Below are positions 39,969 to 63,978 of a stretch of 64,000 bases of DNA, in pieces. The DNA comes from a virus, in the IMG/VR virus record IMGVR_UViG_3300040801_004793, positions 57,017-121,016 of that record; one strand, given 5' to 3'. Positions within the stretch are counted from its first letter, which is position 1, and every line of letters starts with the position of its first letter. A program made the position numbers and the translations under genes. The notes below the pieces were generated by a model. The model worked only from the letters and a program-made list of their open reading frames with translations. It did no database searches and was not told the DNA's origin.

Positions 39969-41081
39969 TTAGGTAGCGTCAGAAACTTGCTGAGAGAAAA
40001 ACAGCTTGGGATCTGCAAATACGGGAATAATAGTAGCCACGGCTTGGCTTACATCCACAGGGGGAACTTTTTGTTTTTCATAAGTAGTAACAAAAACACC
40101 TGCTTTACCATCATTCTCTAGAGTGGGACCCATTGCTCTTTCGCCCATGTTTTCTTTCATAAACACGAAACGATTATCATGCAGAAATCTAGAGTTAGCT
40201 AGACTTTGATCTCCCAATTCATTTCTGTACTTCTCGTCAAAAGTCTTGATTGTAGGTAGTCCACGAGCTTCTAAAATAGCAGCAAGCATTTTAGGACTCA
40301 CGGTTCCTACTTGAGTAACAGTTAAAGAAGAAGCAGCATCTTTGGTAGATTGCTGTTGCATTAGGTCGTTCAAGGTCTTACGGCTCATGTAGTTCACATC
40401 TGGAGAAAAACCATTTGTATCTACATAAGTATCAACTGCGTTGTAAAGGTCTTGAATACCGTTTGCAGTAGCATGTTCTGACCACCTCTCACCACCAACT
40501 TTAGCGTTGGGGAAGTGATTGTAATTACCGGATCTCTTATAATTCAGTTTTGTGACAACACCCGTACGAGGGTCAGTTCTGTTTAGTTCTCCGAATTGAA
40601 GAACCTGCCAAGTCATATGATTCAGCAGTTCCACTTGAGCCGCTGACAGTTTTTCGATTGTGCCGAAAATAAAGGAAGCTAAGTCTCCGTTAGAACCCTT
40701 AATCACTTTGCCATCTTTGGAAGCGTTTTGAATTTTAATACCTTTAGCTAGAGCCTCTGCACGAGCGTCTTTAATATGCCATTGATATTCTTCATCCCAA
40801 ACATAAGCAAGGCTGGATTTCATCATTTCAGCCGTGATTTTGGTAATGTTTCCTTGGTTTGTCACAGGTGGTTCTGCACCGTACGCCACCACCGAAGCGA
40901 TGACATTAATGTTTTCTACCACGTATGCCAGGAAGTTTCTACTCTCGTACGTTTTAAAAGGTACATAGGGGCCAAGAGCATTAGCATCTCTTCTTTTTAG
41001 ATCATCAAGGGTATCCTCAACAATCAGGTCGGCCATTTTATTTTGATGGGCTTCATTAAGCCACTGTGCGATTTGTGCCAT
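39969..41081 (-). CDS. Major capsid protein (phage capsid E-like, HK97 fold)
   Basis: 370 aa after protease/scaffold/decoration. E...M.WQ.L..G, W....A..I.DL and MS...L..L motifs; own RBS and terminator. Confidence 0.8.
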   Translation of the reverse strand: MAQIAQWLNEAHQNKMADLIVEDTLDDLKRRDANALGPYVPFKTYESRNFLAYVVENINVIASVVAYGAEPPVTNQGNITKITAEMMKSSLAYVWDEEYQWHIKDARAEALAKGIKIQNASKDGKVIKGSNGDLASFIFGTIEKLSAAQVELLNHMTWQVLQFGELNRTDPRTGVVTKLNYKRSGNYNHFPNAKVGGERWSEHATANGIQDLYNAVDTYVDTNGFSPDVNYMSRKTLNDLMQQQSTKDAASSLTVTQVGTVSPKMLAAILEARGLPTIKTFDEKYRNELGDQSLANSRFLHDNRFVFMKENMGERAMGPTLENDGKAGVFVTTYEKQKVPPVDVSQAVATIIPVFADPKLFFSQQVSDAT

Positions 41082-55583: not shown

Positions 55584-56276
55584 ATGGACCCGATTCATTT
55601 TAATCACTTAAGCTGTGAACAAATCACAGCAGCTACAGACCGAATTGTGGTCTATCGCAGCACCGCTAAGGTGGAATGGCTTGAACTTCATGCCGTACGG
55701 TCCCCCTATGGGGATGTTACAGGGTGGACCGTCACTAGACACAAATCCTGTGCTTTGACTCTGGAGACCGATAGTACCGGAATCCATAAAGGGTATGGCG
55801 AGGAGCCTACCTTAGATCATCGGGGTTACCTGACCCATAGTGCCAATATAGGAACCATTAAGGATGGGTTCCCGTTTGAACCATCATCCGACTATTTTTC
55901 CTTCTCCGATCGGGAAAATGCCTGGATTCCCGGTTGCCTTGGCAGAGCCCGGTCTGCCTTAGCTGAAGGCACCCTGTTTATAGCCGTCGAAGGCCATGGG
56001 GCTATGATCGGCTCCGTAGCCTATCAGTATCTCACGGGCATGATGCCCAAAGGGTCCGAGTCCATAGCCTTAACCCGTGCTATCGGGAAGGCACGTAAGC
56101 TAGAGCCTATTCCCGGCTCCGTAGACTGCCCTCTATACCACTATCGGGGTAGGGTAGCTACCGGCTCCAAGATCCCGAAACGGGATCTGCTAATCTATAA
56201 GCTGGCTCAGGATGAGTCGGTCTGGGGATTTTATATTCCCCAGGGAATAAATTTTGCCCGCAAGCGTAGGCGTTAA
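55584..56276 (+). CDS. hypothetical (putative early) protein
   Basis: 230-aa ORF with GGAGG RBS. Confidence 0.7.
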   Translation: MDPIHFNHLSCEQITAATDRIVVYRSTAKVEWLELHAVRSPYGDVTGWTVTRHKSCALTLETDSTGIHKGYGEEPTLDHRGYLTHSANIGTIKDGFPFEPSSDYFSFSDRENAWIPGCLGRARSALAEGTLFIAVEGHGAMIGSVAYQYLTGMMPKGSESIALTRAIGKARKLEPIPGSVDCPLYHYRGRVATGSKIPKRDLLIYKLAQDESVWGFYIPQGINFARKRRR

Positions 56277-56305
56277 CGCTGCGGGATCGTATTCTATATT
56301 TTTTC

Positions 56306-56333
56306 CCGAAGGAATTTCTTCGGTATTTTTTTT
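56306..56333 (+). terminator. Intrinsic terminator
   Basis: CCGAAG-gaattt-CTTCGG followed by TATTTTTTTT. Confidence 0.7.
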
Positions 56334-56412
56334 GTCTCTGAAAGTCTGCATTTTTATGTAGGCTCTTTTTTTGTACCCTTTTAGGGGGTGTCAAAAAAAC
56401 TGAGAGAGACAC

Positions 56413-56509
56413 GGGTTAAGAAATTCTCCCTGGTGACAGTACCTAAAAATTTCTTTTCGTAACACACTTTTGGGCTGGCATCCCGATATCACTGCTAGGA
56501 GAAACCATG
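56413..56509 (+). repeat. About 95-bp leader repeat, copy 1
   Basis: Highly similar to 63465-63558; 25-nt identical core agtacctaaaaatttcttttcgtaa. Confidence 0.9.
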
Positions 56510-56761
56510 GAATCTAACACCACGTTCAAGAAAGTTGTCGGTGAAGGGAAAGGGGGGTGGATCCCCTACTCCACCCTGTCCTGCAACGGACAAACCCGGG
56601 AGGGTGCCCAACTGTGGGTACCCATATCACAGTACGGGAGGGACTACTGGGATCTTACCCAGGCCCTCGACTACGGGGGAGTCCTCCTTTCGGAGGAGGA
56701 CACCATGGCGGCCCTAGCCGTTGGGGAGGGTTCCCCAGTCACAGGGGGTAACCTGTATTAG
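56507..56761 (+). CDS. hypothetical protein
   Basis: AGGAG RBS within the leader repeat. Confidence 0.65.
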   Translation: MESNTTFKKVVGEGKGGWIPYSTLSCNGQTREGAQLWVPISQYGRDYWDLTQALDYGGVLLSEEDTMAALAVGEGSPVTGGNLY

Positions 56762-56835
56762 ACCCCCAAACACAACTAGGGGTACTGTTCACGAGAGCAC
56801 GGCAGTACCCACACCTCACACACTGTAAAACATAC

Positions 56836-56863
56836 TAGGGGAGCGCCCCATACAGCGCAGGAG
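56836..56863 (+). promoter_or_regulatory. Start-associated pseudoknot/RBS element
   Basis: taggggagcgccccatacagcgcaggag. Confidence 0.8.
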
Positions 56864-56868
56864 AAATC

Positions 56869-57504
56869 ATGGGTTGGTTAATGCAGCGATCTGTTACTGT
56901 CGATGGGTTGAAAGTGGAGCTAGATTCCGTCAACTCGACGGATATAGAGGGAGGGACAGCACCTCCCCAGCCAAAGGTTTTCGTAGTAGAAGCACCCCTC
57001 CCCATGGGGCTAAATGACCACAAAGGATTTATTCTCTGCAAGGTAGGAGATGAATTACTATACTCCTACGGCCCCCGCCGGGAGGTGATAGAAGTGGTCG
57101 CCTTTGCATTTGAAGGTGACTGCCAGTGGACTCCCGTTGACGTTTGGAAGAAGCGCTGGGATCTTGCTAGATTCGTGGTCCCTTTGGGCCATGAATATTT
57201 TGAAGACGAGGAGTACGGAGAGTGGGTCCAAGGCGACTACAAGGGGATTGAGTTTATCCCCTCACCCGAAAAGGAGGGAAGACGTGCACGATATGTTCGA
57301 TGGGTCTGCACGGGATACCGTCAGGACGAAGGGTACTGGTGCCCTTGGGATGAAGCAGGGGCACACCCTTGCCAATGGGAAGACGTTGTTGCCCTGGTTG
57401 CGGACAAAAGGGGCGGGAAGCATCCCTTCGCTATCGCGGAGGCAGTGACAGTCCTCCCTGAGGGAGACTGCACGTTTTTGGAGGGAGTTGAGGCCGTCGC
57501 TTGA
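56869..57504 (+). CDS. hypothetical protein
   Basis: 211 aa, preceded by the element. Confidence 0.7.
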   Translation: MGWLMQRSVTVDGLKVELDSVNSTDIEGGTAPPQPKVFVVEAPLPMGLNDHKGFILCKVGDELLYSYGPRREVIEVVAFAFEGDCQWTPVDVWKKRWDLARFVVPLGHEYFEDEEYGEWVQGDYKGIEFIPSPEKEGRRARYVRWVCTGYRQDEGYWCPWDEAGAHPCQWEDVVALVADKRGGKHPFAIAEAVTVLPEGDCTFLEGVEAVA

Positions 57505-57568
57505 CCCTTTTTCACTAACCCCACACCCCCGCCCTGGCTCACTACCGGGGCACCTCACACATAAACTT

Positions 57569-57598
57569 TAGGGACGCGCCCCCGTAATAGCGCAGAGG
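57569..57598 (+). promoter_or_regulatory. Start-associated pseudoknot/RBS element
   Basis: tagggacgcgcccccgtaatagcgcagagg. Confidence 0.8.
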
Positions 57599-57603
57599 AT
57601 AGG

Positions 57604-58110
57604 ATGGAAAATACTTTAACCAAGCTGCAACTTCGACGCTATTCCGTTCAAGAAGTGAAAAGCCTATTGAACCTAAACGGATTCTCCAACGGGCAGCATT
57701 ACGCTGCCTGGAGCAAGGTCAAAATGGACTCCGTAGACTGGAATTTTGCGGAAGAGGCGATGCGATGCTTTGAGTCCATTGACCCATCTACGCTTGATGG
57801 GATGGAGGATCTGCTCCGCTTTATGAAAAGGGGTGGGCGAGAATCCTGCTCCGCCATATCCCTTGTTAAGGGAGCGAGTTCGTTTTCTGTTCGGGTGGCT
57901 CCTAGCATCGCCACCGGGCGGCTTGATGACACCGCATGGACTTCCGTATCCACCTGCTGGGATGCGGGACAGTACAGCCTCGCATTTGCCCAATTGGGCA
58001 CTAAGGGCAGCGCACCTTGGGGCTGCGTCTGCTCCCAAGTGCGGTTTATCCGTTTAGGCAATACCCCGGAATTAAGTCACAAGGCCGTAGACATCATGCG
58101 TACGGCTTAG
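57604..58110 (+). CDS. hypothetical protein
   Basis: 168 aa, preceded by the element. Confidence 0.7.
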   Translation: MENTLTKLQLRRYSVQEVKSLLNLNGFSNGQHYAAWSKVKMDSVDWNFAEEAMRCFESIDPSTLDGMEDLLRFMKRGGRESCSAISLVKGASSFSVRVAPSIATGRLDDTAWTSVSTCWDAGQYSLAFAQLGTKGSAPWGCVCSQVRFIRLGNTPELSHKAVDIMRTA

Positions 58111-58165
58111 CCTCGCATCCCACCTCCGCTCGGGCTAACCACTGGGGCTTTTTGCACCAAAACTC

Positions 58166-58193
58166 TAGGGGAGCGCCCCTTACAGCGCAGGAG
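58166..58193 (+). promoter_or_regulatory. Start-associated pseudoknot/RBS element
   Basis: taggggagcgccccttacagcgcaggag. Confidence 0.8.
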
Positions 58194-58198
58194 AAATC

Positions 58199-58537
58199 AT
58201 GACCATTCGTATCGTTCACGCATTACCAAACTCTTGGTTCCCCATACCGGGGGCTAAGGTGACCATGGCGGGGTTGACCGCTGCACAGGTTTCCGAAATC
58301 TGTCATCGGCATGAGGTCATTTCACACGTCAGGTACCCGGATCATGCCGAGAATATCAGCAAGGAACTGGGGGTTGACCTCCCAGTAGGAGTTGAAAACG
58401 CCCCGTCCCCTGCTGGTAGTGCTGACACGTTTATCGTGGCTTCCCGTCGCTTTGATGGGGGCATTGATTACGTCCATGTCTGGGACGCAAATCCGGACTA
58501 TGCAGAACTTGAGTTTCTGCATGAACAATCATTTTAA
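58199..58537 (+). CDS. hypothetical protein
   Basis: 112 aa; ISHVRYPDHA..IS..LGV.LP is reminiscent of DUF1874/STIV B116-like proteins. Confidence 0.65.
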   Translation: MTIRIVHALPNSWFPIPGAKVTMAGLTAAQVSEICHRHEVISHVRYPDHAENISKELGVDLPVGVENAPSPAGSADTFIVASRRFDGGIDYVHVWDANPDYAELEFLHEQSF

Positions 58538-58543
58538 GGGGAC

Positions 58544-58999
58544 ATGGATATAGACTTAGAGTGGCTTGCTAGACTTAGCGAAGCTATAGAGGCCTGGCAC
58601 ACCTCGGGAAACCAAGAGACAGAGTGGATTGAAGTGTCGCTCTGGACTGACCCCCCACAAGAGTTTCTAGATTACGAGCAGTTGTGTCTAAAAGGGGGTC
58701 TGGGGTCTCTTTTGGATTATGGAAGCGGGTGCGACCTCTTGGAAAATTTTCAGGATTGTTTAGCCCAGAGCCTAGATCCTTCACAGGGTTGGAGATTTAA
58801 GCTAGCCGTTGCTCTTAACTCCCTATCTTGGGAACAACGGTACCGGACTGGCAAAAAACCATTCATCTGGGAATATATAGCCCGGACCTCTTATAAGCAA
58901 ACACCAGAAGAGTGTGAAAAATTTCTCCGGCAATTTTGCATCTCTGTAGGAGAGTGGCAAAAAGATGACCGTGGGAACTTCTGTGAAATTGCTTATTAA
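58544..58999 (+). CDS. hypothetical protein
   Basis: 151 aa, coupled to the previous gene. Confidence 0.65.
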   Translation: MDIDLEWLARLSEAIEAWHTSGNQETEWIEVSLWTDPPQEFLDYEQLCLKGGLGSLLDYGSGCDLLENFQDCLAQSLDPSQGWRFKLAVALNSLSWEQRYRTGKKPFIWEYIARTSYKQTPEECEKFLRQFCISVGEWQKDDRGNFCEIAY

Positions 59000-59042
59000 G
59001 ACAGAGTACCTCCACGCCCAGACTAACCCCCATAAAAAACAT

Positions 59043-59070
59043 AAGGGTCGCGCCCTGTACAGCGCGGAGG
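59043..59070 (+). promoter_or_regulatory. Start-associated pseudoknot/RBS element
   Basis: aagggtcgcgccctgtacagcgcggagg. Confidence 0.8.
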
Positions 59071-59075
59071 ATAAC

Positions 59076-59912
59076 ATGACTTCAGTGTGTGCATTCAAGA
59101 TACAGTACGAAAAAGTGTCGAACAACACCGCCCGCTGGGTGAAATCCAGCTTTGAAGAGGCGGAGTATATCGAAGCCGAGACCAACCACCCCGACGGGAT
59201 ACACTCGTCTTGCGCCGTTCGGCGTATAGATGAGGAAACCCGGCGCTTTCTCATCAAACACCGGGAGGGCAGACAGTTAGGTCGGGTTTCCTACGTATCC
59301 CTTTGCAGAAAGATAACTGCAAGGGAGTTAACAGAGGATCAAATACCTCTGTTAATTCGACGATGTATGAAAGCGAAAGGCCTTGAGGCCGTACGTCGAT
59401 ACGGCAGCAATAACAAGTATGTCCTCGACTGGGGATACGACGTAATGGCCGGATTAGAAGTGGAACCTCTAATCGAGTCATCTCCACTGCCGGACCTCCG
59501 GCCAAAGCTATTTGAAAAGACGAAAAAGGGCTTTACGTTTAAGGCTCCAAAGGGGTGTACCCATCCCAAGAATCTGGAGCATCTACCGAATTGGCTTACA
59601 GTAAAGGTAGAGCCTTACAATAGTCTGTCAGATTATGTGACGGAACTAACTATCAAGAAGCCCATCACTCCAGGGCTAGTCGAGGAGCTTAATAAACTTG
59701 CTAAGGAGGTCGATCACTCTTTGAGGAATAGTGATCGACGGATTGCGGGGGAGGACGTGCTCATGTGCTCCACCCTCTACTTTATTTACAAAAGTGCCAT
59801 GTTTAGTGTCTCTAAAGCTCTAGACCTGGCGCTTAAAGATACAAAAGGCGATGTTAGCAAGGCTACCGCCTTATTAAACTCGGGTACGCCGCCCGATTAT
59901 CGCGTCGATTAA
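59076..59912 (+). CDS. hypothetical protein
   Basis: Start reassigned to the ATG at 59076 after the element and GGAGG. Confidence 0.7.
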   Translation: MTSVCAFKIQYEKVSNNTARWVKSSFEEAEYIEAETNHPDGIHSSCAVRRIDEETRRFLIKHREGRQLGRVSYVSLCRKITARELTEDQIPLLIRRCMKAKGLEAVRRYGSNNKYVLDWGYDVMAGLEVEPLIESSPLPDLRPKLFEKTKKGFTFKAPKGCTHPKNLEHLPNWLTVKVEPYNSLSDYVTELTIKKPITPGLVEELNKLAKEVDHSLRNSDRRIAGEDVLMCSTLYFIYKSAMFSVSKALDLALKDTKGDVSKATALLNSGTPPDYRVD

Positions 59913-59958
59913 TCTAGTTGACCCCCCGGCTAACCACTGGGGCATCTCACAACAACTT

Positions 59959-59988
59959 TAGGGGAGCGCCCCCGTAAGAGCGCGGAGA
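59959..59988 (+). promoter_or_regulatory. Start-associated pseudoknot/RBS element
   Basis: taggggagcgcccccgtaagagcgcggaga. Confidence 0.8.
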
Positions 59989-59994
59989 GTCACA

Positions 59995-60237
59995 GTGTTT
60001 GAATCCTTCGAAACTTTTATCGCCCAAGTAAACGAATGCTTTCCGGGCGCAGAGTGCATTATGTACTCCCCCGGTTTGTACATCGGAAGGCGGCAGGGGG
60101 TCGAAATTAGATACGACGAGGACGGCTGGTACGCCGAACTTGTAGGAGTCGGTGGGAAGGGGGACACTCTAGAGTTGGCGATTGCCGATTCTATTGCAGT
60201 GTCCGAAGAACACTGGCAAGCGCAGCAAGACCGTTAA
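59995..60237 (+). CDS. hypothetical protein
   Basis: 80 aa, GTG start after the element. Confidence 0.65.
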   Translation: MFESFETFIAQVNECFPGAECIMYSPGLYIGRRQGVEIRYDEDGWYAELVGVGGKGDTLELAIADSIAVSEEHWQAQQDR

Positions 60238-60312
60238 CCTTAAGTCAGTTTGCACCCGCCCCGGTGGTTTGCAGGGGCTTTTTGTGGGCAGTACCCACAC
60301 GTCACGTAAAAA

Positions 60313-60341
60313 TAAGGGATGCGCCCCGTACAGCGCAGGAG
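60313..60341 (+). promoter_or_regulatory. Start-associated pseudoknot/RBS element
   Basis: taagggatgcgccccgtacagcgcaggag. Confidence 0.8.
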
Positions 60342-60346
60342 ATGAA

Positions 60347-60995
60347 ATGGAAAGAGTCAAGGGGTACGTTATTGGCCCTCGGGTTAATCTTCAGGGGGCC
60401 AACCTGGAGGAGGCTAACCTTCGGGATTCTGACCTTTGGGAGGCTAACCTTCGGGGGGCCAACCTCCTAAAGGCCAAACTTCAGCTGGCTATCCTTCGGG
60501 AAGCTGACCTTAGGAGGGTCAATCTTCAGGAGGCCAAACTTCAGGGGGGCTGACCTTCAGGAGGCAAATCTTCAGGGGGCTGACCTAATGCAGGCGGATC
60601 TGATCGGGGCGGACCTGCGCCATGCCAACCTGCGGGGGGCCAACCTGGTGGGCGCTGACCTGAGAAGGACCAGACTTCTGGGGGCGAATCTGAAAGGTGC
60701 AACCGGGATTAAGGAGGTTCCTCGGTCCCCCATCCCCGGCCTAGCCCAACAAGTGCTAGAGCAAATTACACAGAATCCCGAGTCTCTGAACCAAAAAGTT
60801 TGGCACTCATCCTGCGGAACTGCCCACTGCACGGCAGGGTGGACTGTGGTTTTATCTGGCCCAATCGGGCTAGCCGCAGAAAAACGGCTCGGGACAAGGG
60901 GAGCCGCCGAAATTCTACTGGGTGGATCTAATCACCCATTTGGGATCTACGATGATCCCATCCCTTGGTTGAAAGAGATGGCAGCCAATTCGTAG
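60347..60995 (+). pseudogene. Pentapeptide-repeat protein split by a +1 frameshift in a G6 run (60544-60549)
   Basis: A[ND]Lxx repeats on both sides; removing one G fuses the two frames. C-terminal WH..CGTAHC.AGW motif. Confidence 0.75.
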
Positions 60996-61033
60996 GTCAA
61001 TTAATAGTCAGCCGGGAATTTTTGCACCACCAC

Positions 61034-61061
61034 TAGGGACGCGCCCTGTACAGCGTGGAGG
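61034..61061 (+). promoter_or_regulatory. Start-associated pseudoknot/RBS element
   Basis: tagggacgcgccctgtacagcgtggagg. Confidence 0.8.
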
Positions 61062-61066
61062 ACGAG

Positions 61067-61495
61067 ATGGAAACGACAGTAGCCAAAATACTGAAAGGGG
61101 AGATCAAGGGTTATTTCTTGCCTCTCCATTCAGAATGTGAAGAAGGCATCCTCATCTACTCGGAGGGCCTGCGGGGGATCAACAAAATGGCTCTCATAGC
61201 AGCAGCCAAGGGTAATCTTCGTCACCCTACATCATGCTCAAGAATGAGGGTTCTACTTGAATCCGGGAAAGAACAAGTCCGGGTCTACTCTGGCTGGGAG
61301 GCAGCCCAGTCGGACGCTAATATTTGGGGGTCTTTCAAAAAAGAGTGTTACTTAGTAGCCTCTACAAGGGTAGCAGGAGGCGCAGGACTCACCTATTGGA
61401 AGGGAGGTCGTCCCCAAGGATCGGGGGGAAGCACTTTTGTTCTTAGCACATACCAAAGGCGTGACGGGAGCCTCAGAACAAAAGTCCTATATTAG
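61067..61495 (+). CDS. hypothetical protein
   Basis: Start reassigned to the ATG at 61067. Confidence 0.65.
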   Translation: METTVAKILKGEIKGYFLPLHSECEEGILIYSEGLRGINKMALIAAAKGNLRHPTSCSRMRVLLESGKEQVRVYSGWEAAQSDANIWGSFKKECYLVASTRVAGGAGLTYWKGGRPQGSGGSTFVLSTYQRRDGSLRTKVLY

Positions 61496-61560
61496 TTCAT
61501 CCCGTAGCAATGCTTACCCCCGACCTGGTTAATCACAGAACATTTCGAATCGTAGAATCA

Positions 61561-61588
61561 TAGGGACGCGCCCTGTACAGCGCGGAGG
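61561..61588 (+). promoter_or_regulatory. Start-associated pseudoknot/RBS element
   Basis: tagggacgcgccctgtacagcgcggagg. Confidence 0.8.
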
Positions 61589-61593
61589 ATGAG

Positions 61594-61815
61594 ATGATGG
61601 AAAGATTAGACCTTGGCGACAACGTTGGCGAAAGATGTACCGACCCTGGGTGGTATGTGGAGATTCAGTACACAAAAGACCAGGATGACGAGTGTTACAT
61701 CTTCTACTCCGAAGATGGGGTGGTGAGTTACAACCTCAACGATTACCAGTTTTTGGGTCCATTCGACTCAGAGCAGGAAGCTCTTTTCGTGAAAAAGAGA
61801 CATTACCCTGAATGA
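61594..61815 (+). CDS. hypothetical protein
   Basis: 73 aa; GWY...GPFDSE.EAL motif seen in small phage proteins. Confidence 0.65.
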   Translation: MMERLDLGDNVGERCTDPGWYVEIQYTKDQDDECYIFYSEDGVVSYNLNDYQFLGPFDSEQEALFVKKRHYPE

Positions 61816-61848
61816 GTACCGCGCCCCCACAAGATCGAGGAGGATAGC

Positions 61849-62133
61849 ATGGACGAAGTAAAAGCGGGAATGTACGAGCTGATGATGGGGACATCACAAA
61901 CTGGGACACAAGCCCGCCGACTGATACGTTATCAAAAGGTTTCAAACATGCTTGTGTGGTGTAATTACACCAATGCCCAGTTTGAAAACGACAAGGTAAG
62001 GGTGTGGCCTTCGCCCCAAGGATTGAGTGTTGTGTTTCCAGGGAACAGCCAGGTTTTTGGCCTCATAGAGGTTGAAGCCTGGGAAGAGTTCATGGTCGAG
62101 TTAGAAAGCTGCTTGCCTTCTCTCTGGCCCTAG
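61849..62133 (+). CDS. hypothetical protein
   Basis: GGAGG RBS with a degenerate element upstream. Confidence 0.65.
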   Translation: MDEVKAGMYELMMGTSQTGTQARRLIRYQKVSNMLVWCNYTNAQFENDKVRVWPSPQGLSVVFPGNSQVFGLIEVEAWEEFMVELESCLPSLWP

Positions 62134-62236
62134 GCAGTCTCAACACCCACCCCGCCCCAGGGATTAGTCGGGGCTTTTGTCAATATTAAGGCGTTAGCGC
62201 AGACAGCCTTTAAGCGCCGTTAGTCCACGAGATGGC

Positions 62237-62551
62237 TTGGAAAGGTATATGGTTTTCGCAAGACACATTAACAAAATCGCACATCGGTCCGGCTACGCTT
62301 GCCAGATTGATGAGTTACCCAGCGATAGCAATTTAGTAGTGATTGAGGAGGATGACACAGGACGCATCCTCAAGGGACCGAGCGGCAAAATATATGAGCA
62401 CATCTACGCAGGTAAGCGTAGACGTTCTCCGGGTTTGCCGCCTAACCCCGAACAGTTTTTCCTCCTCATCCCTGAGGAGGTGATGGGTGTAATGATGGGC
62501 ATGATGCCCAAACGGTCATCCCTGGCCGTTAAATACGGCTACCAGAAATAA
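62237..62551 (+). CDS. hypothetical protein
   Basis: 104-aa ORF; start uncertain. Confidence 0.55.
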   Translation: MERYMVFARHINKIAHRSGYACQIDELPSDSNLVVIEEDDTGRILKGPSGKIYEHIYAGKRRRSPGLPPNPEQFFLLIPEEVMGVMMGMMPKRSSLAVKYGYQK

Positions 62552-62565
62552 TCGGAGAGCTGAAA

Positions 62566-63189
62566 ATGAGAAATCTGATTGTGACTAAAGAAAATCGTCA
62601 GCCTCTTGAGGGCGGGCGCGTTTCGTTCGGTGAGCAATATTTTAGCTGCCGTGGTGGTAGCTACCGCACGTATGAGGTGCGCCTGTCTGCCAAAGCAGCA
62701 GCTTATCTTGAGGACGGAGATGAGTTGCGATGGTGGGACGGCCCCAGCGAGTTGCCGTACATTGCGTGTGGGGGCGAGATCATCAAAGCTGATGGTCGTC
62801 GCATTCAGCTTAGAGGTAGCCGTGATGTTGGGATCGACACAGGCCACCCGCCTCGTTTAACCCTAAAAATGAGAAGTCGCAGGGGAGTCACCTGGGAATG
62901 GGATGGAAAGGGTGGAAGATCCTATCAGGCTGTCAAAGCGCCCTGGGGAACGTGGTACAAATTTGACCACTGTCCGCCCGGTATTTGGGGTGTTAAATCC
63001 CACGAAGAATTCATGACATGGGCAACAAACGCCCAAGTCTTTGATGGGAAGACCGAGTACATCTCGTCGAATCGCAGACTGCATCTAGTTACCCGCCCCA
63101 AAGATCAGGAGGGTTGGATTTCCGGTTCGCTGACACCTCAAATAAAGGTGATTGGCGACATCGCCACTGATGAGCCTTTGATACTGTAG
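62566..63189 (+). CDS. hypothetical protein
   Basis: 207 aa, GGAG RBS. Confidence 0.65.
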   Translation: MRNLIVTKENRQPLEGGRVSFGEQYFSCRGGSYRTYEVRLSAKAAAYLEDGDELRWWDGPSELPYIACGGEIIKADGRRIQLRGSRDVGIDTGHPPRLTLKMRSRRGVTWEWDGKGGRSYQAVKAPWGTWYKFDHCPPGIWGVKSHEEFMTWATNAQVFDGKTEYISSNRRLHLVTRPKDQEGWISGSLTPQIKVIGDIATDEPLIL

Positions 63190-63231
63190 CAAACGCATAG
63201 CTTGACAGCCCTGTACATTGCGGAGGATAAA

Positions 63232-63414
63232 GTGACAGTCTATCTAGTTCAAGAATGGGACACGGAACCCATGCTGCTGAAAATCCTAAGCAGCATGGAC
63301 GGTGCTGTTGACTATGCAAAGTCACTGGCACAAACAGAAAACAATAGCTGGTTTTCTGTCACCGCCTGGACTATAGACGGTGAGGAGGGGGATATGATTT
63401 ACAGGAGTTGTTGA
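63232..63414 (+). CDS. hypothetical protein
   Basis: GTG start reassigned after the degenerate element gccctgtacattgcggagg. Confidence 0.6.
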   Translation: MTVYLVQEWDTEPMLLKILSSMDGAVDYAKSLAQTENNSWFSVTAWTIDGEEGDMIYRSC

Positions 63415-63464
63415 CACCCCACCCCATCTAATCAATGGGGCGTCTAATCTTTTGTGACTAGCAT

Positions 63465-63558
63465 GGGTTAAGAAGTTATCCCTGGTAATAGTACCTAAAA
63501 ATTTCTTTTCGTAATACACCTTTGGGTTAGTACCCCGTATAGTACTGGAGAAAAAATG
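63465..63558 (+). repeat. About 95-bp leader repeat, copy 2
   Basis: Similar to 56413-56509. Confidence 0.9.
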
Positions 63559-63978
63559 GACGTTACCAAGATCATGCAGAAAGCGTTAAATCCCGCAGAT
63601 TGGGAAGTGAACGAGGTAATGCAGAAGGTAAATCCTCTGGTTTACTATTGGAAGAAGGCAGAGGGCATTCCTTCCCCCATAGAGGTCTACCCCGACCTCT
63701 CAAGGGGGGTGGTTATTTTCCAAATCACTCCCGTTCTAGGGGAGGATAACGCCTTTGAAGGGTACTTTCAGGGGGTAGAAATAACTCTCGAAAGTATCCC
63801 TTTCTGGAAGGCCACTTTTAAGGTTATTTTCCTGGGCCGGAGTGCTCTCTGGGGAGACCCAGTAGTATCCCAGGAATGGGAAAAATCGGGTCTGACCTGG
63901 AATCAGTGGGTGAAACAGGTCCACCAGAGATATCTCCACTTGATGGAGAATATGGGTTACTACTTACCTCAGGGCTAG
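63556..63978 (+). CDS. hypothetical protein
   Basis: 140 aa, GGAG RBS within the leader repeat. Confidence 0.65.
   Translation: MDVTKIMQKALNPADWEVNEVMQKVNPLVYYWKKAEGIPSPIEVYPDLSRGVVIFQITPVLGEDNAFEGYFQGVEITLESIPFWKATFKVIFLGRSALWGDPVVSQEWEKSGLTWNQWVKQVHQRYLHLMENMGYYLPQG

Follow-up and report, generated by a model that had tools for sequence, protein, structure and literature searches.

A GC-rich leader of about 30 nt is repeated before ten unrelated genes, all ORFans or of unassigned function, in the 121,016-bp genome of an uncultured cyanophage-like virus. Eight near-identical core leaders and two divergent ones lie within 7 kb of this 121-kb genome, all on the + strand. In all ten, the loop of a GGG/CCC hairpin has the potential to pair with the bases just before the SD, and this potential is kept with three different sequences. 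The leader is probably a device, putatively made of RNA, for starting translation.

The eight core copies of the original prediction were all recovered by a pattern check of the window (the whole stretch of 64,000 nucleotides analyzed here). Their predicted gap of 5-7 nt to the start codon also held, each leader ending in GGAG or GAGG followed by ATG or GTG (Table 1). A strict sub-pattern gave 5 matches, all on the + strand, against 0.00 expected from 100 shuffles, and a repeat search placed the core copies in families D2-D4. Over the whole 121,016-bp genome, the GGG-n1-3-GCGCCC core was found at 8 loci of the + strand, all between genome positions 113854 and 118579, and at 1 locus of the - strand. 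A covariance model built from the 10 leaders and searched on the whole genome retrieved only those 10, the next match having an E value of 0.29. Conservation has sharp borders: exactly at the start codon, and 2 nt ahead of the GGG, information content drops from 2 bits to background. Between these borders the core copies are identical at no fewer than 22 of some 30 positions, loop-3 bases included (GUACA in 5 of 8). By eye, a TAnnnT hexamer was seen just upstream of only 2 of the 8 core copies.

Table 1. Leaders and associated elements of the array, in window numbering. Coordinates of the core copies begin 3 nt ahead of GGG and end with the start codon.
Feature	Position	Strand	Description
Core leader 1	56835..56871	+	GGGG..CCCC type; ends at ATG of 211-aa ORFan
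Core leader 2	57568..57606	+	7-nt loop 3; before 168-aa ORFan
Core leader 3	58165..58201	+	97% identical to copy 1; before 112-aa ORFan
Core leader 4	59042..59078	+	5-bp stem 2, CCU; before 278-aa singleton protein
Core leader 5	59958..59997	+	7-nt loop 3, GTG start; before 80-aa ORF
Core leader 6	60313..60349	+	Stem 2 UGCGC/GCGCA; before pentapeptide-repeat gene
Core leader 7	61033..61069	+	Stem 2 with G-U pair, GCGU; before 142-aa ORFan
Core leader 8	61560..61596	+	Before 73-aa ORF
Divergent leader	56469..56509	+	GGG..CCC kept, stem 2 UGGCA/UGCUA (one G-U); first gene of 7-kb unit
Divergent leader	63521..63558	+	GGG..CCC kept, stem 2 AGUAC/GUACU, extendable by G-U pairs; first gene of next unit
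Decayed copy	61816..61851	+	Retains GCGCCCCC and GGAGGAUAG; both stems gone
Decayed copy	63203..63234	+	Retains CCCUGUACA and GGAGGAUAA; both stems gone
Originally proposed variant	62188..62217	+	Membership not supported
Promoter/operator-like element	56413..56462	+	About 50-60 nt, conserved; copy 1 of 3, heads array
Promoter/operator-like element	63465..63514	+	Copy 2, heads next unit
Terminator-like hairpins	56306..56374	+	Two strong hairpins closing preceding unit
3' hairpin module	57531..57551	+	After stop codon, GCCC..GGGC
3' hairpin module	58129..58146	+	With T-run, loop CUAACCAC
3' hairpin module	59924..59942	+	Loop family as at 58129..58146
3' hairpin module	60258..60278	+	Followed by TTTTT
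3' hairpin module	62154..62174	+	Followed by TTTT
Closing hairpin	63422..63440	+	Closes 7-kb unit

Wherever the spacer before an array gene exceeds 30 nt, it contains the motif, one of the decayed copies or the originally proposed variant at 62188; the two array genes without a motif start 6 and 14 nt after their neighbour. The proteins encoded downstream of the leaders are mutually unrelated (no pair at E < 0.01 except two halves of one gene), and the repeat therefore did not arise through duplication of the genes. Only the pentapeptide gene among the array proteins has a Pfam or PHROG match. Searches for relatives did not find a related genome carrying the array. Since the leaders come from one genome and are paralogous, they cannot be counted as independent.

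Stem 2 is of the GCGC type in eight leaders, AGUAC/GUACU in one and UGGCA/UGCUA in one. As first proposed, the two divergent leaders keep GGG..CCC and a loop-to-pre-SD pairing of 5-6 bp with other sequences. We searched for the topology itself (GGG, loop, CCC, a 3' strand pairing with the loop over 4 bp, then SD). With G-U pairs allowed, this search returned the 10 leaders and two further loci, one per strand; restricted to Watson-Crick pairs, it gave 9 of the 10 leaders and no - strand locus. For any one leader, a fixed 5-mer would pair with the loop by chance with a probability of 0.003 for Watson-Crick pairs only and about 0.025 with G-U. In the alignment of the leaders (A4), the share of paired cells is 86.3%, whereas shuffles give 79.8% (1 of 500 reaches 86.3%) and slid controls 28-50%.

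Three stem-2 pairs of this alignment are changed on both sides. The divergent leaders, themselves a homologous pair, account for all of these double-sided changes. Stem substitutions among the core copies are of two kinds, both C-to-U changes giving G-U (CCU in 3 copies, GCGU in 1), and a fifth stem-2 pair is formed by 4 of the 8 core copies, where chance would give about 3. The covariation originally claimed for stem 2 is not significant within the eight core copies; the examples first given for it apply to the 4 core copies with a fifth pair, and the other 4 read A.A, A.A, C.A and A.G. The inner two GGG/CCC pairs are invariant, so that stem 1, and hence the pseudoknot, is without covariation support. 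The 62188 variant was missed by the covariance model, and its MFE fold takes other pairs. The copies near 61819 and 63207, by contrast, are degenerate as had been described, both stems being lost; two genes keep such stemless copies, and the fold is therefore not indispensable.

Because three unrelated stem-2 sequences stay complementary at the same place, the leader is better read as RNA than as a DNA operator. This preference, already expressed in the original prediction, is upheld by the swapped stem 2, wobbles that are G-U on the sense strand, loop lengths that vary across leaders, strict orientation and the junction with the SD, though not by covariation in the core. Overall, the reading as RNA has moderate support. 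Energies speak against an unusually stable fold: nested MFE z-scores of the leaders against shuffles range from -0.59 to +0.69, and a crude estimate for the pseudoknot comes to about the same energy as the nested MFE, without improving on shuffles (z from -0.7 to +0.7 for both energies together). Nested MFE folds choose stem 1 in five leaders and stem 2 in the other five; both helices are therefore competitive, and they could coexist only as a pseudoknot. Predicted SD accessibility showed no consistent gain when the motif bases were sequestered.

We infer that the fold forms, with stem 1 and stem 2 together, and likewise infer each functional step that follows. Tentatively, we favour the reading that the motif would be the RNA component of a portable ribosome-binding-site cassette and that its fold would help each cistron to start translation or to survive. 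In the + strand transcript, the loop of the GGG/CCC hairpin would pair with the 4-5 nt that immediately precede the SD. The resulting stem 2 would most likely close a compact H-type pseudoknot of 7-9 bp, with a loop 1 of 1-2 nt, no loop 2 and a loop 3 of 5-8 nt, leaving the SD and start codon outside the fold. An A/C-rich unpaired tract with this structured cap behind it may make each internal cistron an independent initiation unit, cap and tract together serving, on a long GC-rich polycistronic message, as a place where the 30S subunit and protein S1 dock. After processing, cap and tract would also protect the 5' end, and the hairpin past each stop codon would protect the 3' end. As the same cassette stands before unrelated ORFan genes, it is probably also a joint for gene shuffling.

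The repZ, tisB and timP activator pseudoknots are among the closest kinds to the leader, together with mycobacteriophage start-associated sequences (SAS) and the T4-type PeSL cassettes; the leader belongs to none of them. In IncI-alpha repZ (PMC8383071), tisB (PMC7708055) and timP (PMC11228461), the loop of a hairpin base-pairs with a stretch upstream of the ribosome-binding site, and the potential for such pairing is present in 10 of 10 leaders. As described there, these pseudoknots promote initiation: S1 and the 30S subunit bind the 5' pseudoknot of tisB together with the unpaired tract beside it, and translation of timP requires its pseudoknot. The same accounts present them as single-copy switches coupled to antisense RNA, a leader peptide or processing, whereas the leader has ten copies, each ahead of a different, unrelated gene, and a promoter scan gave no hint of an antisense partner. 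It also lies 0-1 nt from the ribosome-binding site, against about 100 nt in tisB.

The SAS and ESAS of Cluster K mycobacteriophages (PMC3203893), whose function was still putative in 2025 (PMC12699233), resemble the leader in being short asymmetric repeats with GGG..CCC outer parts and a GGAG core. They lie 3-7 bp before start codons in one orientation and in 11-19 copies, are restricted to the non-structural half of the genome and precede genes of different families. The leader likewise has one orientation and stands directly before the starts of non-structural genes of different families. Its sequence is nevertheless unrelated: the 13-nt SAS consensus, with up to 2 mismatches, was found nowhere on the + strand of the 121 kb and at 1 chance-like site on the - strand. 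The SD follows the GGG..CCC hairpin in the leader but lies inside it in SAS, the upstream inverted repeat of the leader keeps RNA-type pairing for which the ESAS authors found no such support, and phage and host are unrelated to those here.

PeSLs, as presented in the available parts of PMC2839356 and PMC4122927, are repeated intergenic cassettes in an ORFan-rich plastic region, with G-run/C-run stem-loops, a 3' end made up of SD and start codon, and a mosaic structure that fits recombination. In the leader too, a G/C-tract stem-loop is joined to the SD and start of the ORFan that follows, within a plastic region, and mosaicism is seen within this genome only. PeSLs are, however, defined by a strong sigma-70-like early promoter, and no such -35/-10 promoter was found at any leader copy; moreover, the PeSL stem-loop is itself the terminator, whereas in this array a terminator-like hairpin forms its own module further upstream. 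No match to Rfam 15 (including preQ1, mini-ykkC and SAM-II) was obtained in the window at gathering score, and at E <= 10 none of 9 weak matches in 56250-63650 fell on a motif copy on the sense strand. The original prediction recognised no described family in the leader; this agrees with Rfam, but start-associated repeats ahead of non-structural phage genes have been published as a kind (PMC3203893, PMC2839356).

The main alternative to the cassette is a translational operator, in which one trans-acting protein, from phage or host, would bind the fold and switch about ten ORFan genes together by blocking or freeing the SD. The element adjoins the SD, and its invariant positions, loop 3 among them, are more than the fold alone needs. 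T4 provides precedents: in the available text of PMC3014915, RegA represses about 30 mRNAs at initiation regions, gp32 uses a small H-type pseudoknot, and early-gene initiation regions are under post-transcriptional control; the GGAG SD of the leader, with the purine-rich spacer after it, resembles the RegB consensus. The same text describes the gene 32 knot as single-copy and far upstream, nucleating binding on an AU-rich stretch of the SSB gene, and RegA sites as unstructured and AU-rich. Here the knot adjoins the SD, and the downstream genes lack an SSB or any other Pfam domain except in the pentapeptide gene. Identity with the gene 32 operator was rejected, as no SSB leader with a pseudoknot and then a long AU-rich unstructured tract was found. 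We regard the operator as unlikely, since a sequence-reading protein would not bind the two divergent leaders with their wholly changed stem 2; the lack of Pfam or PHROG matches among array proteins other than the pentapeptide one also counts against it, as does the absence of a CsrA match in the genome, while the equal absence of RegA and RegB has little weight, their search controls being silent. These searches yielded no candidate for the binding protein.

Recombination might instead account for the whole pattern, recent copying or gene conversion keeping the cassette alike as a PeSL-like homology patch for ORFan shuffling, with pairing incidental to a GC-rich near-palindrome. Intergenic mosaics in which repeat modules (D8, D9, D11, D17, D18) are variously combined with motif subtypes would suit this explanation, as would the unrelated flanking genes, the sharp conservation borders, folds no stabler than shuffles and the precedent of PeSLs, which also precede ORFans, have G-run/C-run stems and end in an SD (PMC2839356, available part). 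It appears quite unlikely as a sole explanation, because copying alone leaves the re-created pairing of the divergent leaders unexplained and does not account for the G-U-preserving stem changes; relatives in which to see exchanges were not found.

An exonuclease stop or processing mark, the fold halting a 5'-to-3' exonuclease or directing an endonuclease cut in the upstream A-rich tract so that each cistron becomes a separate stable mRNA, would agree with the A-rich unpaired tract at -9 to -6, the invariant A before GGG and the 3' hairpin after most stop codons. We consider it improbable, since a 7-9 bp fold of average stability is a weak roadblock. A site acting at the DNA level is very doubtful, whether as a promoter read by a modified RNA polymerase or as an oriented operator like the stoperators of mycobacteriophages, which PMC3203893 sets apart from SAS: the copies do share one orientation in intergenic spaces, and terminator-like hairpins before many of them would call for re-initiation, but the region holds 5 sigma-70-like sites against 8.4 expected and none at the motif, the genome gave no T7-type RNA polymerase or sigma70_r2 match (with a silent RNA polymerase search control), a transcript initiating after the motif would be without an SD, and the variable GGG..CCC spacing, the swapped stem 2 and G-T wobbles confined to the sense strand all fit RNA better. 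Neither a phage repressor nor an integrase match was identified in the genome.

The ribosome-binding-site cassette could conceivably, though this is somewhat unlikely, represent a widespread and so far undescribed class of phage 'RBS-pseudoknot cassettes' of which the array is a local instance: a minimal knot docked on the SD that, through 30S recruitment via S1 or switching by a phage protein, would drive an early ORFan regulon and also supply the homology for shuffling its genes. For most phage accessory genes no function has been assigned, and little is known of their expression beyond a few model phages. If the cassette is real, a small portable RNA module would set the translation of any gene placed behind it, making new ORFan genes expressible at once. 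It would also give the unexplained start-associated sequences of mycobacteriophages a concrete counterpart and synthetic biology a compact natural RBS insulator, and at about 30 nt it is short enough for complete mutate-and-rescue.

All eight GC-rich core leaders of the original prediction, in which GGG, GCGCCC and a second GCGC run into the Shine-Dalgarno sequence (SD), were confirmed at their predicted positions. A strict sub-pattern of the motif matched five times against 0.00 expected, and repeat families D2-D4 link all copies to one another. Each copy carries GGAG or GAGG, followed after 5–7 nt by ATG or GTG. Positions from the A preceding GGG through GCGCCC carry 2 bits of information each, and the content is high once more at the second GCGC and the SD; background is reached 2 nt before GGG and at the first codon past the start. 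Over the whole genome, the motif core occurs at eight plus-strand loci, all inside about 5 kb, and at one minus-strand locus. A covariance model built from ten leaders (the core copies and two divergent ones) and run on both strands of the 121 kb recovers those ten only. The leader repeat is real, strand-specific and start-linked.

Within the array, the 7-kb GC-rich plus-strand gene unit that carries the leaders, every gene with a spacer longer than 30 nt has the motif, a decayed copy or a variant leader predicted at 62188, and the two genes with none of these lie 6 and 14 nt behind the neighbouring gene. The decayed copies look like the result of decay by descent. The proteins encoded downstream of the copies show no mutual relatedness, and the repeat is therefore not a by-product of gene duplication.

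Coordinates of the leaders and associated elements (window positions unless marked as genome)
Feature	Position	Strand	Description
Divergent leader	56469-56509	+	heads the 7-kb unit; GGG and CCC kept; stem 2 UGGCA/UGCUA
Divergent leader	63521-63558	+	heads the next unit; GGG and CCC kept; stem 2 AGUAC/GUACU
Decayed copy	61816-61851	+	both stems gone; loop-3 and SD sequence kept
Decayed copy	63203-63234	+	both stems gone; loop-3 and SD sequence kept
Conserved ~50-60 nt element	56413-56462	+	heads the array, right after two strong terminators
Conserved ~50-60 nt element	63465-63514	+	heads the next unit
Conserved ~50-60 nt element	genome 1137-1184	+	third copy, without knot
Post-stop hairpin	57531-57551	+	repeat family, by repeat comparison
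Post-stop hairpin	58129-58146	+	as above
Post-stop hairpin	59924-59942	+	as above
Post-stop hairpin	60258-60278	+	as above
Post-stop hairpin	62154-62174	+	as above
Post-stop hairpin	63422-63440	+	as above

The leaders had been proposed to fold as H-type pseudoknots, with a GGG/CCC hairpin (stem 1) whose loop pairs with the bases just before the SD (stem 2). As GCGC is its own complement, pairing and a direct repeat cannot be told apart from the eight core copies taken by themselves. In the divergent leaders, the replaced stem 2 sits where it does in the core copies with respect to the SD; the chance of a fixed 5-mer pairing with such a loop is, per leader, 0.003 if just Watson-Crick pairs count and about 0.025 once G-U pairs are admitted. 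Paired alignment cells amount to 86.3%, compared with 79.8% in shuffles (1 of 500 reaches 86.3%) and 28–50% in a control with slid partners. Three stem-2 pairs display changes on both sides, and the stem substitutions of the core copies are of two kinds, each a C-to-U change giving G-U on the sense strand. A topology search (GGG, loop, CCC, a strand pairing with the loop, and SD; 4 bp, G-U allowed) returned the ten leaders plus one coding-region match on the plus strand, and one locus on the minus strand. Nested folding divided the ten leaders evenly, five with stem 1 and five with stem 2, as would be expected of a pseudoknot given to a program unable to draw one.

Several observations weaken this picture. 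All both-sided changes stem from two mutually homologous leaders, and a fifth stem-2 pair thought to covary is formed in four of the eight core copies, against about three expected. The folding energies of the minimal motifs do not stand out from those of dinucleotide shuffles (z −0.59 to +0.69). Once a generic pseudoknot penalty is applied, the knot roughly equals the best nested fold in stability and likewise shows no gain over shuffles. Predicted SD accessibility, compared with motif bases blocked and unblocked, showed no consistent freeing of the SD. The leader at 62188 did not hold as a variant: the model misses it and its predicted fold differs. The proposed RNA fold draws moderate support from stem-2 pairing that is kept with replaced sequences, but none from fold energies, nor from stem 1, whose inner pairs are invariant. 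Weighing the supporting pairing data with the weakening points, we consider it rather likely that stem 2 is real, and the full pseudoknot plausible, though we would not count on it. The repeat is probably an RNA element and possibly a minimal pseudoknot.

The array begins past two strong terminators (56306-56374). The conserved element of about 50–60 nt is present in three copies in the genome, heading three successive plus-strand units, with an exact 21-mer common to all. It is a likely promoter or operator, with no sigma-70-like hexamers recognised in it; no sigma-70-like promoter was found at any motif copy either. Inside the array, the usual order past a stop codon is a GC-rich hairpin, in some cases ending in a T-run, then an A/C-rich tract and the motif. 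The post-stop hairpin loop CTAACCAC has its complement, GTGGTT, in another copy.

That the leader serves as a translational operator appears unlikely to us. Searches of the genome gave no match for CsrA or a sigma factor, and none for RegA, RegB or a T7-type RNA polymerase, the latter three carrying little weight since the search controls were silent. The SD and spacer GGAGGAUAA at window 59066-59075, 61831-61840 and 63219-63228 is similar to the strong cleavage consensus of T4 RegB (PMC3014915). Hairpins and tracts are repeat modules (families D8, D9, D11, D17 and D18) variously combined with motif subtypes, so that unrelated genes are separated by mosaic, cassette-like intergenic regions. 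That the leader is a recombination joint only is a poor prospect. Integron-like cassettes were rejected, since the genome has no match for a tyrosine recombinase. A DNA-level site is improbable, and we rate an exonuclease stop just as low. An antisense terminator was rejected, the minus strand having a terminator look in just two of the eight copies, as were a sigma-54 or T7-type promoter (on visual inspection and the silent-control polymerase search) and a riboswitch: no Rfam family matched, in agreement, as far as Rfam goes, with the initial view that the motif is not recognisable as a described family.

The virus record is complete (121,016 bp, with a 117-bp terminal repeat), the window being its bases 57017-121016. 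GC content is 34–40% over most of the genome versus 48–53% in the window's final 10 kb. Genes for the large terminase, capsid and head morphogenesis are found just upstream, on the minus strand, with the major capsid protein at window 39969-41081 (−). Its nearest named relatives are those of the Pseudanabaena cyanophages Pam2 and PA-SR01 (31% identity); just two IMG/VR contigs of 11–13 kb are nearer (67%). Public runs with pieces of the region come from a microbial mat only; their DNA contigs over it show no differences and have low depth, no RNA run is listed as carrying the region, and the RNA run that was tried yielded none of it. In the GC-rich block lie about 18 plus-strand genes with a clear coding signature (codon position 1 G-rich, position 2 low in GC). 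Among them, Pfam and PHROG searches returned just a pentapeptide-repeat gene and, below threshold, a single DUF7336 match. The 278-aa array protein, encoded behind the fourth core copy, is a singleton in a set of 5.8 billion proteins; the 211-aa protein behind the first has four homologues, all distant.

In the pentapeptide-repeat gene (window 60347-60995), the reading frame shifts by one base at a G6 run (60544-60549), which breaks the gene in two. Both halves match PF00805, and from 60471 onward the second half has an open frame in which the repeat carries on; an assembly error in the homopolymer would account for this, as would genuine slippage or phase variation. A 21-nt repeat of 95% identity (window 56036-56056 and 62497-62517), coding for G-M-M-P-K, is shared by two genes that are unrelated elsewhere and lies inside the 3′ part of each. 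At genome 4557-11646, paralogous genes of about 245–260 aa stand in tandem, each finishing with a similar tail, and the junction after each is TTTTGGATT(C/T)TAAAA-ATG.

Motif patterns gave 2 and 74 single matches in viral contigs, about chance level and never more than one copy per contig; both stretches of the two-match pattern look like GC-rich coding sequence. Genome contigs gave 40 single matches, mostly in actinomycete, Acidobacteriota and other MAG records, with no contig holding more than one copy. The promoter-like 21-mer had 0 matches in viral contigs, and the sole blastn match against phages was to a pentapeptide repeat. The model found nothing in four capsid-relative records (the two 67% contigs and the Pseudanabaena phages), and the large terminase and the 278-aa protein as queries led to no related loci. 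As far as seen, the leader repeat is restricted to one phage.

A literature search at the level of titles and abstract openings found no printed description of a repeated pre-SD knot of this kind. A large survey reports numerous candidate RNAs lying no more than 25 nt from phage genes, its 8,495 IMG/VR candidates perhaps including the leader motif, perhaps not (PMC10690425). Among published kinds, the closest is the Cluster K mycobacteriophage start-associated sequence, similar in placement, orientation, copy number and limit to non-structural genes and still of unknown function (PMC3203893, PMC12699233). Its consensus, allowing up to 2 mismatches, is absent from the plus strand of this genome, and its own upstream inverted repeats are without RNA-type support. 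T4-type PeSL cassettes share the ORFan context, G/C stems, terminal SD and mosaic pattern, but are defined by a strong early promoter (PMC2839356), and none was seen at the leaders here.

The reading towards which we lean, as almost but not quite an even call, is that the leader is a cis-acting RNA, part of a portable ribosome-binding-site cassette aiding the translation start or survival of its cistron. A pseudoknot upstream of the ribosome-binding site is required in repZ (PMC8383071), initiation requires a knot in timP (PMC11228461), tisB binds S1 and the 30S subunit through a 5′ knot and an unpaired tract, and S1-binding H-type knots came out of SELEX (both PMC7708055). We infer every functional step of the cassette mechanism. 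The fold would sequester the GC-rich bases adjoining the SD, with the SD and start staying outside; together with the unpaired upstream tract it could give the 30S subunit and S1 a place to land, and may double as a protected 5′ end.
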